Source: an uncultured Gemmatimonadales bacterium
Lineage (GTDB): Bacteria; Gemmatimonadota; Gemmatimonadetes; Gemmatimonadales; GWC2-71-9
Length of the DNA stretch: 64,000 bases
Assembly: GCA_963771275.1 (NCBI GenBank)
Contig: CAVYSW010000003.1
Coordinates: forward strand, 1,056,001 to 1,120,000
Direction of reading: 5' to 3'
This document shows, in pieces, positions 15,691-21,278 of this stretch. The notes below the pieces were generated by a model. The model did no database searches and was not told the DNA's origin. It worked only from the letters and a program-made list of their open reading frames with translations. The translations under genes were made by a program, and so were the position numbers. Numbering within the stretch: the first letter of the stretch is position 1; every line of letters starts with the position of its first letter.

Positions 15691-16514
15691 GGCGAGGGCT
15701 CTTCCTGGTTGCGTGCGCGACCGTGTGGGTCGCGCGCCCCAGTGCGGCGCAGACATTTACCGACTCGACATTGGCCCTGGCCATCCGGCTCGTGTCGGAA
15801 GGTCAGAGCGACTCGGCCCGGGCGATCGTGCGTGCGAAGCTGGCGGGCCTTTCACGCACCGATTCACTCTATCCGGAAGCGCTGTTCGCGGCCGGCATGG
15901 TGGGTGGCAGCCTCGACAGCGCGCTCGCCGCGTTTCGCCGGGTGAGTCTCGATTACTCCGAGTCCCGCTGGGCCGACGACGCGTTGCTGCGCATCGCCCA
16001 ACTGAGCTATGCGGCCGGGGACCTCGCCACGGCCGAGCGCGCCGTCGACCGGATCCTGGCCGACTATCCGCTGAGCGACGTGCGCGCCCAGGCGGCCTAC
16101 TGGGCCGGACGAATCCGCATCAAGGAGGGGAAGGGCAACGAAGCCTGCCCGCTGCTGCAGCAAGCCGCGGACGGGGCGGGGGCGGACATCGAGCTGGCGA
16201 ACCGCGCTCGGTACTACCTGCAGAGCTGTCAGGTGCCGGCGGCCCCCACACCGGATACGACCGTCAAGCCCGCGCCGCCGCCAGGCACCATCTACGCCGT
16301 GCAGGTCGCTGCGGTGGCGACGGCGACGGCCGCCGACGAGATGATGCGCACCCTGAACACGGCGGGCTTTCAGCCCCGCGTCGTGCGTGATGCCGACGGG
16401 CTGTTCAAGGTCCGGGTGGGGCGGTACGCCACGCGCGCCGAGGCGCAGCAGCTCCAGGTGGAGATCCGGCGCAAGCTCGGCGGCTCGCCGTTCGTCGTCG
16501 AGGAGCAGCGGTGA
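15687..16514 (+). CDS. Exported TPR + SPOR domain protein
   Basis: Signal peptide; TPR-like WADDALLRIAQ; C-terminal YAVQVAA...FKVRVGRYATRAEA. Confidence 0.85.
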   Translation: MRRGLFLVACATVWVARPSAAQTFTDSTLALAIRLVSEGQSDSARAIVRAKLAGLSRTDSLYPEALFAAGMVGGSLDSALAAFRRVSLDYSESRWADDALLRIAQLSYAAGDLATAERAVDRILADYPLSDVRAQAAYWAGRIRIKEGKGNEACPLLQQAADGAGADIELANRARYYLQSCQVPAAPTPDTTVKPAPPPGTIYAVQVAAVATATAADEMMRTLNTAGFQPRVVRDADGLFKVRVGRYATRAEAQQLQVEIRRKLGGSPFVVEEQR

Positions 16515-19102
16515 CCCGGAAGTCGCCGGGGGCGCCCGACACGCCCTTGATGCAACAGTACCGCGACATCAAGAACCGCCATGCGGACGCCATTCTGTTC
16601 TTCCGGATGGGCGATTTCTACGAGATGTTCTACGACGACGCGCGCCTGGCGGCCCGTGAGCTCGGACTCACGCTCACGGCCCGCAACAGCGGCGGCGCCG
16701 CCGACGTGCCGCTTGCCGGCGTGCCGGTCAAGGCCGCGACCGAGTATCTGCGGCGTCTCGTCGGCCTGGGCTACCGCGTCGCGATCTGCGAGCAGGTGGA
16801 GGATCCCCGGACCGCCAAGGGCGTGGTCCGGCGCGAGGTCGTCGAAACGGTGACGCCGGGGGCGATCCTCGCAGACGATCTGCTCGACGGCGTCGGGAAC
16901 AACTTCCTGATGGCCCTCGCCCCGGGAGTTCCGGTCGGCATCGCGGCGATCGACCTGTCGACCGGCGAGTTCGCGCTGGAGACCGTGGCGCCCGTCGACC
17001 TGGCCGGGGCGGTCGCGCGCTACGCGCCGCGGGAGCTGGTCGTTCCGGCGGGGGCGCCGTCCGCCGACCTGCCGTCCCCGGCGATGCGCACCACCCGTGA
17101 GGACTGGGAGTTCGACGCCGCGCTCGGCTGCGATGAGATCACCAAGCGGTTCGGGCTGGCGGGCCTCACCGGCCTCGACATCGGCGACCCCGACCGCCCC
17201 GCCCTGGCCGCGGCGGCGGCGCTGTTGCACTACCTGCGCGAGCTGCAGCCCGGCGGGGTTCCGCATCTCGCGCACCCGGTGGTGCGGCGCGCCGGGCGGA
17301 CCATGGTGCTCGACGAGATGACGCGTCGCAATCTCGAGCTCACCGAGACGATGCGGCCCGGCGAGCGGGGCACCACGCTGCTGTCCGTCCTCGATCGCAC
17401 GGTCACGCCGATGGGGACCCGCCTGATCCGCCAGTGGCTGCTCGCGCCGCTGCGCGATGCCGCGGCGATCCGGGCCCGGCATGACGCCGTCGAGGTCCTC
17501 GCACGCGACGGGCGGGGCCGCGACCGCCTGCGCGACGCGCTCGACGGCGTGCGCGACATCGAGCGACTCGCCGGTCGCGCCGCGGCGCGGCGGGCAACGC
17601 CGCGTGACCTCGGCGGGCTGCGCGACTCGCTGCAGCGCCTGCCCGACGTGCTGAGCGCGCTCCACGGACTGCCCGGACGCGAGGGCAGCGCGGAGCTCGA
17701 GCGCATCGCCCGCGCGTTCGACCTGCTCACCGAGTGTGCGGAGCCCCTCGCGCGATCGCTCGCGGAGCGGCCGCCGGCGACACTCGGCGACGGCGAGACG
17801 ATCCGGAGCGGCGTGGACCCGGCGCTGGACGAGCAGCGCGACCTGCGCGACGGCGGCAAGCGGTTCATCGCCAGCCTGCAGGCGCGCGAGCGCGAGCGCA
17901 CCGGCATCACGTCGCTCAAGGTCGGCTACAACCGCGTGTTCGGCTACTACCTCGAGGTCTCCAAGGCGAACCGTCACACCGTCCCGGCGGATTACGAGCG
18001 CCGCCAGACGCTGACCGGAGCCGAACGCTACGTCACGCCCGAGCTCAAGGAGTACGAAGCCCGGGTGCTCGGCGCGGAAGAGGCGGCGCTCCTCCGCGAG
18101 GGCGCGTTGTTCGACGTCCTGTGCGACGGGATTCGGGAGCAGCTCGCGCGGATGCAGAGCGTCGCCCGCATCCTCGCCGAGCTCGACGTGTACGGCGCCT
18201 TCGCGGACGCCGCGACGCGGGAGGACTACGTCCGGCCGCAGATGGCCGACGAGCCCGTGCTCGATCTGCGCGCGTCGCGCCACCCGGTGGTGGAGCAGCG
18301 GCTGCCGCGCGGCAAGTTCATTCCCAACGACATCTACCTGGATGACGCGCAGCGCGTGATCCTCCTGACCGGCCCCAACATGGCCGGGAAGTCGACGATC
18401 CTGCGGCAGGTCGGGCTCGCGGCCATCATGGCGCAGGCGGGCTGCTTCGTGCCGGCGGCGCAGGCGACGCTCGGCGTGGTGGACCGCGTGTTCACCCGCG
18501 TCGGCGCGAGCGACAGCCTCGACCTCGGCCAGTCCACGTTCATGGTCGAGATGAGCGAGACCAGCGCGATCCTCAACGCCGCGACGCCCCGGAGCCTGGT
18601 GCTACTCGACGAGATTGGCCGCGGCACCGCGACCTACGACGGCGTCGCCATCGCCTGGGCGGTGACCGAGTACCTGCACGATCAGGTGGGCTGCAAGACG
18701 ATCTTCGCCACCCACTACCACGAGCTGACGCAGCTCACCGAAGAGCTCCAGCACGCGCGCAACTGCAACGTGGCCGTGCAGGAGTCGGGACACGACATCG
18801 TCTTCCTGTACCGGCTCGATCCCGGCGGGGCCGACCGGTCGTACGGCATCCACGTCGGGCGGCTCGCCGGACTGCCGCCCGGTGTCGTCCACCGCGCCGG
18901 CGAGATTCTCGCCATGCTGGAAGCGGGCCACCACGTCGCGGGCCGGGTGCCGCCGCCGCCCCCCGACGCGGCGCAGCTCGCGCTGTTCACCCCCGAGCAC
19001 CCCGTGCTGCGGGAGTTGCAGGCCATCGACCCCGACACCATGACCCCCCTCGAAGCCCTGTCGCGGCTCGCGGAGCTGAAGCGACGGGCGGAGGAACGCT
19101 GA
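16511..19102 (+). CDS. mutS: DNA mismatch repair protein MutS
   Basis: TPLMQQY, FRMGDFYEMF, TGPNMAGKST, STFMVEM, DEIGRGT, ATHYHEL. Confidence 0.98.
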   Translation: MTRKSPGAPDTPLMQQYRDIKNRHADAILFFRMGDFYEMFYDDARLAARELGLTLTARNSGGAADVPLAGVPVKAATEYLRRLVGLGYRVAICEQVEDPRTAKGVVRREVVETVTPGAILADDLLDGVGNNFLMALAPGVPVGIAAIDLSTGEFALETVAPVDLAGAVARYAPRELVVPAGAPSADLPSPAMRTTREDWEFDAALGCDEITKRFGLAGLTGLDIGDPDRPALAAAAALLHYLRELQPGGVPHLAHPVVRRAGRTMVLDEMTRRNLELTETMRPGERGTTLLSVLDRTVTPMGTRLIRQWLLAPLRDAAAIRARHDAVEVLARDGRGRDRLRDALDGVRDIERLAGRAAARRATPRDLGGLRDSLQRLPDVLSALHGLPGREGSAELERIARAFDLLTECAEPLARSLAERPPATLGDGETIRSGVDPALDEQRDLRDGGKRFIASLQARERERTGITSLKVGYNRVFGYYLEVSKANRHTVPADYERRQTLTGAERYVTPELKEYEARVLGAEEAALLREGALFDVLCDGIREQLARMQSVARILAELDVYGAFADAATREDYVRPQMADEPVLDLRASRHPVVEQRLPRGKFIPNDIYLDDAQRVILLTGPNMAGKSTILRQVGLAAIMAQAGCFVPAAQATLGVVDRVFTRVGASDSLDLGQSTFMVEMSETSAILNAATPRSLVLLDEIGRGTATYDGVAIAWAVTEYLHDQVGCKTIFATHYHELTQLTEELQHARNCNVAVQESGHDIVFLYRLDPGGADRSYGIHVGRLAGLPPGVVHRAGEILAMLEAGHHVAGRVPPPPPDAAQLALFTPEHPVLRELQAIDPDTMTPLEALSRLAELKRRAEER

Positions 19103-20898
19103 TGCGGCGCACTGCTACGCTCATCACCCTGGCCCTCACTGCCGCCGCGTGCGGGCGAGCGAGCCGGGACGCGGACGCGGCGAGCCCCGCCGCAACCTCC
19201 CGCGGGTTCGAGCCGCCCGTCATCACGAATCCCGAGTCGCCCGTCCGCTACCCGCCGGCGCTGTACGAGCAGCGGGTCGAGGGGACCGTGGTGCTGCGGT
19301 TGTACGTGGACGAGGCGGGCGCGGTGGACTCCGACTCGACCCGCATTGCCGAGGGCAGCGGTCACGCGTTGCTCGATTCCGCCGCCCTCGCGGGCGTCCC
19401 GGCGATGCGCTTCGCCCCCGCGCGGCTGGACGGCGTGCCCGTGGCCGCGGCCTTTCTCCAGCCGATCCAGTTCCGACACCCCGAGGCCAGCGGCCCGGGG
19501 GGGACCGCTGACATGCCCGCGCACCCTCGCCCCTACGACAACGTCCTCGAGACGATCGGGTGGACGCCGCTCATCCGCCTGCATCGCGTGACCGAAGGCC
19601 TGCGCACCCCGGTGTACGGCAAGGCCGAGTTCTTCAATCCCGGCGGCTCCGTGAAGGACCGCATCGGGATCGCGATCATCGAGGACGCCGAGCGCCGCGG
19701 CGCACTCAAGCCCGGCGGCGTGATCGTGGAGGGCACGTCGGGCAACACCGGCGTCGGCCTCGCGATCGCCGCGGCCATCCGGGGGTATCGCTGCATCTTC
19801 ACGCTGCCGGACAAGATGTCGAGCGAGAAGGTCCGCCTGCTCAAGGCCTTCGGGGCGGAGGTGATCATCACACCGACCGCGGTACCGCCGGATCACCCCG
19901 ACAACTACGTCATGAAGGCAAAGGCGATCGTGCAGCAGACGCCCGGTGCGGTCCTGGCCAACCAGTTCTACAACCAGGTGAATCCGGACACGCACTACCG
20001 CACGACGGGCCCGGAGCTGTGGGAGCAGACCGAGGGTCGGATCACCCACTTCGTCGCCGCTCCCGGCACCGGGGGCACCCTGAGCGGCGTCGGCCGGTTC
20101 CTCAAGGAGAGGAACCCCAAGATCCGCATCATCTCCGGCGATCCCGACGGCTCGATCTTCGCCGAGTACGCGCGGACCGGGAAGGTGGGCGAGGCCCACC
20201 CCTACAAAGTGGAAGGCATCGGGAACGACAAGATTCCCGGGACCTTGCACTTCCAGTACATCGACGAGTTTCACACCGTGACCGACGCCGAGGCATTCCA
20301 TATGACGCGGCGGCTGGTCCGGGAGGAGGGACTGTTCGTCGGCGGCTCGACCGGCCTCAACGTGACCGTCGCGCTGCGGGTCGCGCGCCAGGTGGACGAC
20401 CCGGCGGCCTGTGTCGTCGTGCTGCTGTGCGACACCGGGGAGCGCTACCTGTCCAAGGTGTTCAACGACGAGTGGCTGCAGGAGCACCAGCTGCTCTCGG
20501 CGCCACGCGTGACCGCGCGGACGCTGCTCGCCGGGAAGCCCGCCGGGGCGCCGCCGTTCGTCACCGTCGAGGCGGCGCAGACCGCCCGCCAGGCGCTCAA
20601 CCTGATGTCGACGTACAATGTGTCACAGCTCCCGGTGATGACCGGCGCCGAGTGCGCCGGAGCCGTCACCGAGGCTACGCTGATGGCCCGCGCGATCGGC
20701 GACCCCTCGTCGCTCGAGCGCCCGGTCCGGGATCAGATGGAAGGCCCCTACCCCGTCGTGGAGGCGGACGTGCCGCTCGAGCGCTTCAGCGCCCTGCTCT
20801 CCCGCGAGACGCCGGCGGTGCTCGTCCGGGCCGACGGCGCGTTCGTGGGGATCGTGACCCGCCACGACGTGTTGCATCACATGCAAGGGTTGCGATGA
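19102..20898 (+). CDS. In-frame fusion: lipoprotein TonB C-terminal domain (aa 1-137) + PLP-dependent cystathionine beta-synthase with CBS-domain pair (internal ATG 19513)
   Basis: LTAAAC lipobox; YPPALYEQRVEGTVVLRLYVDEAG...LDSAAL...RFAPA; then IGWTPLIRL, GGSVKDRI, TSGNTG, GTGGT, YKVEGIG, DTGERYLSK. Confidence 0.85.
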   Translation: MRRTATLITLALTAAACGRASRDADAASPAATSRGFEPPVITNPESPVRYPPALYEQRVEGTVVLRLYVDEAGAVDSDSTRIAEGSGHALLDSAALAGVPAMRFAPARLDGVPVAAAFLQPIQFRHPEASGPGGTADMPAHPRPYDNVLETIGWTPLIRLHRVTEGLRTPVYGKAEFFNPGGSVKDRIGIAIIEDAERRGALKPGGVIVEGTSGNTGVGLAIAAAIRGYRCIFTLPDKMSSEKVRLLKAFGAEVIITPTAVPPDHPDNYVMKAKAIVQQTPGAVLANQFYNQVNPDTHYRTTGPELWEQTEGRITHFVAAPGTGGTLSGVGRFLKERNPKIRIISGDPDGSIFAEYARTGKVGEAHPYKVEGIGNDKIPGTLHFQYIDEFHTVTDAEAFHMTRRLVREEGLFVGGSTGLNVTVALRVARQVDDPAACVVVLLCDTGERYLSKVFNDEWLQEHQLLSAPRVTARTLLAGKPAGAPPFVTVEAAQTARQALNLMSTYNVSQLPVMTGAECAGAVTEATLMARAIGDPSSLERPVRDQMEGPYPVVEADVPLERFSALLSRETPAVLVRADGAFVGIVTRHDVLHHMQGLR

Positions 20899-21278
20899 GC
20901 ACGTTCCTGCTCTCGACCGAGGCGACCTTCTCGGCGGCGCACACCCTCCCGGGCGTGGACATGTGCGCGCGGATGCACGGGCACAACTGGCGCGCGCGGG
21001 TGACCGTGACCTTCGATGCGGCCCGGCTCGACGGGCACGGGATGGGCGTGGATTTCCGCGTGCTGGAACAGATGACGCGGGATGCCGTGGCGGATTTCGA
21101 GCACCGCTACCTGAACGATCTGGCGCCCTTCGCTGAGTGCGCGCCGACGGCGGAGTCGATCGCCCGTGTCGTGGCGGAGCGGGTGGACACCCGACTGGGC
21201 GGCCACTCCTCGGGTGCGCGCGTCCTCGAAGTGGAGCTGTGGGAAATGCCTCAGTACCGCGTGGTGTACCGCCCATGA
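20895..21278 (+). CDS. queD: 6-carboxytetrahydropterin synthase / PTPS family
   Basis: FSAAHTL, CARMHGHNW, VDF, EHRYLND, PTAESIA, LWE; ATGA overlaps on both sides. Confidence 0.88.
   Translation: MSTFLLSTEATFSAAHTLPGVDMCARMHGHNWRARVTVTFDAARLDGHGMGVDFRVLEQMTRDAVADFEHRYLNDLAPFAECAPTAESIARVVAERVDTRLGGHSSGARVLEVELWEMPQYRVVYRP

Follow-up and report, generated by a model that had tools for sequence, protein, structure and literature searches.

An apparent TonB_C and cystathionine beta-synthase fusion in a deposited assembly is very probably two adjacent genes joined by a homopolymer undercall

The deposited sequence contains a single open reading frame of 598 aa (19102..20898, + strand) that encodes TonB_C, PALP and CBS domains in one chain, and we consider this apparent fusion very probably, with a likelihood of roughly 0.9, to be an artefact of a one-base undercall, G7 for G8, in the deposited assembly. 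All positions refer to the window, i.e., the whole stretch of 64,000 nucleotides that was analysed. The locus would instead comprise two tightly packed genes (Table 1), the first for a putative TonB_C lipoprotein of ~136 aa that is predicted to be exported and the second for a CBS-like enzyme of 461 aa that is predicted to stay in the cytoplasm, while the missing base may have been lost during consensus building or polishing. The G run would serve both genes, by encoding the Gly-rich end of the lipoprotein and by acting as the presumed ribosome-binding site of the enzyme gene, and because of this double use the lipoprotein and enzyme genes are probably translationally coupled.

Table 1. Features at the junction and on either side of it, in window coordinates.
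Feature	Position	Strand	Remarks
mutS	16511..19102	+	MutS domains I-V; stop TGA 19100-19102 shares one base with ATG 19102
Putative TonB_C-domain lipoprotein gene	19102..19511	+	~136 aa with G8, ending ...FRHPEASGPGGDR at TGA 19509-19511; stop one base out of frame in the deposited G7
G homopolymer	19497..19503	+	7 G deposited, 8 G in read-derived contigs; codes the Gly-rich lipoprotein tail
Haem-less cystathionine beta-synthase-like PLP enzyme gene, 461 aa	19513..20898	+	Start ATG 19513; C-terminal CBS pair (Bateman module)
6-pyruvoyl-tetrahydropterin synthase (QueD-like) family gene	20895..21278	+	PF01242, 103.3 bits

The composition of the deposited frame has been found as a preliminary description gave it, with a lipobox, a TonB-C domain, a PLP enzyme and a CBS pair in succession. 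In Pfam, TonB_C covers residues 48-125 with 50.2 bits (cut-off 24.6) and PALP residues 149-443 with 252.1 bits, and CBS is recognised in two stretches, the better of which spans residues 484-529 (44.6 bits). The N-terminus, MRRTATLITLALTAAAC, carries a lipobox-like Cys17, as judged by eye against the lipobox pattern. Direct reading of the letters likewise bears out the junction as it had been described, with seven Gs at 19497-19503, a TGA at 19509-19511 that lies in frame +2 relative to the open reading frame, and an ATG at 19513 that is in frame as codon 138. The junction peptide of the G7-encoded fusion would span ...GPGGTADMPAHPR. Downstream, the ATG 20895 of the QueD-like gene overlaps the enzyme stop, as ATGA.

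Evidence for the undercall has come from public sequencing runs. An extra G behind 19496 has been found in the read-derived contigs of four out of four public runs from four studies, one contig each (depth at the insertion 9.42 in X1, 16.1 in X2, 3.6 in X3 and 4.54 in X5, the depth with the insertion equalling the depth in each), these being assembled contigs rather than per-read counts, in which rare variants are dropped and of which two have a depth below 5. It is the sole indel in the table comparing these contigs with the deposited sequence, and the contig records bridging the G run show only 0-3 further differences from it. X1, the possible source of the deposited DNA, also gives G8. A single continuous frame across the junction, as a natural TonB_C + PALP + CBS fusion would possess, is thus confined to the G7 of the deposited assembly. 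With one more G, window:19503-19511 translates to DR*, the upstream frame ends ...SGPGGDR-TGA, and this stop, which is in frame because the read-derived contigs carry G8, ends one base before ATG 19513. The preliminary description had anticipated that one added G would turn the frame into two ordinary neighbouring genes, and had proposed a comparison of G7 with G8 in the reads; the G8 translation and the four runs agree on this point.

Relatives have shown the same arrangement. Among same-order relatives, the TonB-C gene and the enzyme gene are split at all 19 fetched loci, and in each of these the TonB-C stop lies at or beside the enzyme start; the two frames differ in 18 loci and coincide in one, where a TAG separates them. 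In 80 metagenome loci, 73 have been found split and seven without a TonB-C match in the available flank, with no fused case. In the nearest relative, a metagenome contig with an enzyme 97% identical (L021), the upstream gene ends ...EASDPGGDR-TGA-c-ATG, a C-terminus that matches the one obtained here with G8. At the protein level, 119 of the 120 best matches are enzymes that stand alone, 436-464 aa in length, whereas the one remaining match, P0062 (626 aa), is the sole fused call among the 120. A further fused call, P0124 (516 aa), is one of seven matches to the N-terminal part of the open reading frame; about 60 N-terminal residues of its enzyme part are absent, which suggests that the gene call is damaged or chimeric. 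The TonB_C + PALP + CBS architecture, for which a search of relatives had been suggested, accordingly recurs in none of the 19 and none of the 80 loci and in one of the 120 best matches. The initial title reading of a true fusion that exports the enzyme is not supported, given G8 in all four runs and the lack of a fused locus among these relatives, two outcomes that the preliminary description had itself set against it, whereas the homopolymer assembly error that had been listed as a third option agrees with both the G8 contigs and the split loci.

One match, G022, at first appeared to carry a single open frame matching query 14-598 free of stops, and has been rejected by tblastn and by reading of the junction. 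At this locus (L017), the TonB-C part lies in another frame, its TGA overlapping a GTG start, and the long match merely continues through a second frame that is open in this GC-rich DNA.

Homopolymer tracts of eight Gs are mutable, and the sequenced strain may in principle carry a real G7, a recent one-base deletion having fused the lipoprotein and enzyme genes. Translation of the enzyme would then still begin at the internal ATG 19513, downstream of the SD-like run, and the fusion would be a by-product, probably non-functional outside the cell membrane. The deposited assembly does read G7, and the fused calls P0062 and P0124 do exist in public data, observations that run against the artefact reading and lend themselves to this alternative, as does a packing so tight that a single indel joins the genes. 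It draws further support from a genome-wide scan, in which the third-position GC phase before each G/C run has been compared with the phase after it. Among the strong-signal runs, 11 of 114 with a length of 7 and 2 of 24 with a length of 8 have shown a phase shift, as compared to 3.5% at random positions, and most of these 13 candidates, their contexts read by eye, are normal gene boundaries with the G run 5-9 nt before the next start. The scan has given no sign of systematic homopolymer frameshifts in the assembly, nor has it lent the undercall any added support, and a G7 error would therefore be local, not systematic. A genuine G7 allele has nevertheless to be regarded as very unlikely, as X1 and three further near-identical runs all read G8, fused relatives number 0 of 19 and 0 of 80 loci, and P0124 gives the impression of damage or chimerism.

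Under the preferred reading of two genes separated by G8, the run lies 9 nt ahead of ATG 19513 in a Shine-Dalgarno-like position. GGAGG- or G-rich runs have been observed ~7-12 nt ahead of the enzyme start in relatives, and G7 or G8 runs are similarly placed ahead of other genes in the source genome. These comparisons lend weight to the suggestion, already raised in the preliminary description, that the run could act as the SD of ATG 19513, and it is here taken as the putative ribosome-binding site of the enzyme gene. The same description had also offered a slippage switch between fused and split forms. Such a switch could act in DNA, as phase variation, or during transcription, and in its fused state part of the enzyme would be exported. 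A G8 homopolymer exactly at the junction, the difference of one G between assembly and read-derived contigs, and a G11 at the same place in the same-genus relative L007, and likewise in L028, would fit such a switch, yet we judge it highly improbable: a single length, G8, runs through the contigs of all four runs (contigs being unable to display minorities), the tract is not conserved, with widely different junctions in relatives, most of which do without a long G run (some read GGGGGAGG, GGAGAGGG or GGAGG, and others have no G run whatever), most relatives use an ATGA or GTGA overlap, a one-base slip in these relatives would not as a rule yield an in-frame fusion, and no route is known that would load PLP into, or fold, this enzyme after Sec export. 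Equally little is to be expected of the variant in which G8 slips at a low rate, so that a few cells or transcripts make a lipoprotein-anchored exported CBS fusion and the deposited G7 represents one of them.

The 461-aa enzyme gives PALP at 12-306 (252.5 bits) and CBS at 45.5 bits in Pfam, and combines a fold-type II PLP domain with a following CBS pair in a full-length alignment, as seen with Pfam, TIGR01137 and the Rv1077 chain. Its completeness from ATG 19513 is evident from TIGR01137, positions 3-456 of 457 of which align to residues 146-594 of the long frame, and from the chain of Rv1077, 6-457 of which pairs with query 9-456. Three homologues examined in full length begin V/M-P-x-H-x-R-P-Y, and an SVKDR stretch is present, the lysine of which we take to be the PLP lysine. 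The TIGR01137 score of 476.1 bits stays below the curated equivalog cut-off of 510.25, and cysteine synthase A (NF007989) falls just short as well (380 vs cut-off 387). Because of the TIGR01137 value, the safe name would be 'CBS-like', and the score fixes neither the exact reaction nor the response to S-adenosylmethionine. The upstream protein passes the gathering cut-off for TonB_C on residues 1-134 (53.8 bits, cut-off 24.6; Pfam), and the upstream genes of relatives encode putative lipoproteins of 125-145 aa that end 6-10 residues past a conserved FRHP motif. A lipobox-like pattern has been matched in 14 of 19 relatives by a regular expression of our own; by eye, four of the five misses (L002, L004, L005, L011) also have a comparable ...AC or ...GC site, and the sequence of the fifth (L020) is cut short. 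A PDB search has returned no solved structure matching the TonB-C part by sequence at E 0.01 or better.

The gene model 19102-20898 should consequently become two genes, this record should not be used as a source of the TonB_C+PALP+CBS architecture, and no exported sulfur-metabolism enzyme is implied by the locus. The upstream protein resembles the TonB C-terminal domain family (PF03544) in its clear TonB_C domain. Energy-transducing TonB is built with an N-terminal membrane anchor and a long Pro-rich periplasmic spacer, whereas the ~136-aa protein appears to lack both and shows a lipoprotein-type signal with a lipobox-type Cys17, and only ~30 residues precede its TonB_C domain. The enzyme in turn resembles the cystathionine beta-synthase Rv1077 of Mycobacterium tuberculosis, which is likewise a stand-alone, haem-less bacterial protein in which a PALP catalytic domain is joined to a CBS pair at the C-terminus (PDB 7xnz, 7xoh, 7xoy; Sci Adv 2022, PMC9232105) and aligns with the 461-aa product end to end (E 1.2e-105), although Rv1077 stems from another phylum and the relatives of the window enzyme carry the label Gemmatimonadota in their sources. 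Length errors at homopolymers of assembled genomes are a subject of the Polypolish (PMC8812927) and Nanopore R10.4 (PMC9262707) papers. The case described here resembles such errors in that a G/C run wrong by one base alters the reading frame, so that the gene model comes out wrong. Known errors of this kind usually split a gene, whereas here two abutting genes merge into one open frame, because stop and next start lie one base apart, and the homopolymer indel yields a plausible fusion instead of a broken gene.

The preliminary description had reported a 598-aa reading frame that carries a TonB-C lipoprotein domain into a cystathionine beta-synthase-like PLP enzyme across a G tract, and the frame, its domains, the seven Gs (G7), the TGA in another frame and the in-frame ATG are all present in the deposited sequence (see table). 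Pfam has placed TonB_C at residues 48-125, PALP at 149-443 and CBS in two stretches (best 484-529), all above the cut-offs. The top NCBIfam model, TIGR01137 cystathionine beta-synthase, has reached 476.1 bits, which is below its cut-off of 510.25, with profile positions 3-456 of 457 aligned to residues 146-594.

Features at and around the junction (window positions)
Feature	Position	Strand	Remark
Single ORF, 598 aa	19102..20898	+	read in deposited sequence
G homopolymer, seven Gs	19497-19503	+	deposited sequence
TGA, frame +2	19509-19511	+	deposited sequence
ATG, in frame, codon 138 of ORF	19513	+	deposited sequence
mutS	starts 16511, stop in TGATG 19100-19104	+	stop overlaps ATG 19102 of TonB-C lipoprotein gene
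PTPS/QueD-like gene	ATGA 20895-20898, to 21278	+	ATG overlaps enzyme stop

One search found 21 public sequencing runs, and four, from four studies, have been compared over 19200-19800: X1 (0.97 of sampled words; marked as possibly the source of the window DNA), X2 (0.84, a peat metagenome), X3 (0.38) and X5 (0.36), all as Logan contigs and not raw reads. The single indel relative to the window has been an extra G behind 19496, found in 4/4 runs (one contig each), of which X1 is not independent evidence if it is the source of the assembly; depth with the extra G equals the total depth in each run (X1 9.42, X2 16.1, X3 3.6, X5 4.54; under 5 in two of the four), and bridging records differ from the window in 0-3 further letters. 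Therefore, the tract is eight Gs (G8) in every read-derived contig, and the G7 seen at the junction is confined to the assembly. Among the three explanations first offered, a homopolymer assembly error has thus been borne out, and we consider the TonB_C/enzyme fusion an assembly artefact with a probability of about 0.9. A true G7 allele of the sequenced strain, with the assembly on its side and the contigs of all four runs against it, is improbable. A slippage switch at the G tract would suit the one-G difference between assembly and contigs and is more improbable still; G8 is the single length in the four runs, in contigs from which rare variants are dropped.

As 19503-19511 translates to D-R-stop, the upstream gene, given one extra G, terminates ...FRHPEASGPGGDR at TGA 19509-11, one base ahead of the enzyme ATG. 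The same layout has been found in the nearest metagenome locus (L021, enzyme 97% identical), where a 135-aa lipoprotein ends ...FRHPEASDPGGDR, followed by TGA, one C and ATG.

The fused architecture has also been sought in relatives. The enzyme gene has been detected in 40/40 same-order genomes searched and a TonB-C match abuts it in 35/40, as counted from the matches listed, among which a separate TonB-C entry is missing for G025, G027 and G039 and an orthologous enzyme match for G028; in G029, the genes lie apart. The TonB-C frame is closed by a stop at or beside the enzyme start in 19/19 fetched loci, L002-L020 (18/18 loci and 34/39 genomes without G020, the source of L012, which is flagged unpublished), the two frames being different in 18 and the same in one (L011), with TAG between. 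Same-genus junctions read GGGGGAGGCCGC-TAG-CG-ATG (L002), ...TGATG (L005) and a G11 run, then ...TGA-TG-ATG (L007). In the metagenome scan, 80 loci were kept: a stop-closed TonB-C gene lies immediately upstream of the enzyme in 73, the TonB-C match is absent from the available flank in 7, some cut by a contig end, and a fused frame occurs in 0/80. A true exported fusion is accordingly unsupported, since G8 in 4/4 runs also places a stop before the enzyme.

In protein databases, stand-alone PALP+CBS proteins of 436-464 aa make up 119 of the best 120 matches to the whole ORF, the one also bearing TonB_C being P0062 (626 aa), in which a long Pro/Arg-rich linker precedes a Val aligning with the usual enzyme start. 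Residues 1-150, queried against proteins of 328-1047 aa, gave 7 matches. One of them is again a fused call (P0124, 516 aa), whose enzyme part misses ~60 N-terminal residues; in the remaining matches, the TonB-C part is linked to domains of MutS or alanyl-tRNA synthetase, or the protein is an ordinary TonB. P0062 and P0124 are sporadic single clusters and form no family. In the public gene calls P0121, P0122 and P0123, TonB-C lipoprotein homologues are joined to MutS domain V or alanyl-tRNA synthetase domains, probably as additional artefacts of read-through or frameshift where genes of GC-rich genomes lie closely packed.

The abstracts of PMC8812927 and PMC9262707 name wrong homopolymer lengths as the type of error that most often remains in long-read assemblies. 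The genome (70.3% G+C) has 310 G/C runs of 7 and 90 of 8, and a coding-phase test has detected shifts at 11 of 114 strong-signal runs of 7 and 2 of 24 of 8, versus 3.5% at random positions. Judged by reading their sequence contexts, the majority of these 13 shifts mark normal borders between genes, and the junction error looks local. At C3:1183244-1183250 and C11:42132-42139, coding phase changes at the G run, with the upstream frame open >150 nt past it and the downstream frame open hundreds of nt before; these are possibly frameshifts or more miscalls.

The junction G run lies 9 nt upstream of ATG 19513 and may reasonably be taken as a putative Shine-Dalgarno site, because relatives have GGAGG-like or G-rich runs at the same place and other genes of this genome carry G7/G8 runs 5-9 nt upstream of starts (e.g., C3:228015-228022, C3:1495878-1495884, C10:107038-107044). 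Pure G runs apparently act as such sites in this genome, and a one-base length error at each would alter gene models.

From 16511 to 21278, mutS and the genes for the TonB-C lipoprotein, the enzyme and the PTPS/QueD-like (6-pyruvoyl-tetrahydropterin synthase family) protein are packed so that each stop overlaps or abuts the next start, and they appear to form one operon. In this lineage, the placement of a cystathionine beta-synthase-like gene directly downstream of a small TonB_C lipoprotein gene is widely conserved; its most frequent junction among metagenome loci, a 4-nt ATGA or GTGA overlap, suggests that the exported protein is translationally coupled to the cytoplasmic enzyme. The upstream product (TonB_C, 53.8 bits, preceded by a lipobox-like signal) has no PDB match by sequence. 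The 461-aa downstream product aligns end to end (query 9-456, E 1.2e-105) with Rv1077, the solved haem-less cystathionine beta-synthase of M. tuberculosis.
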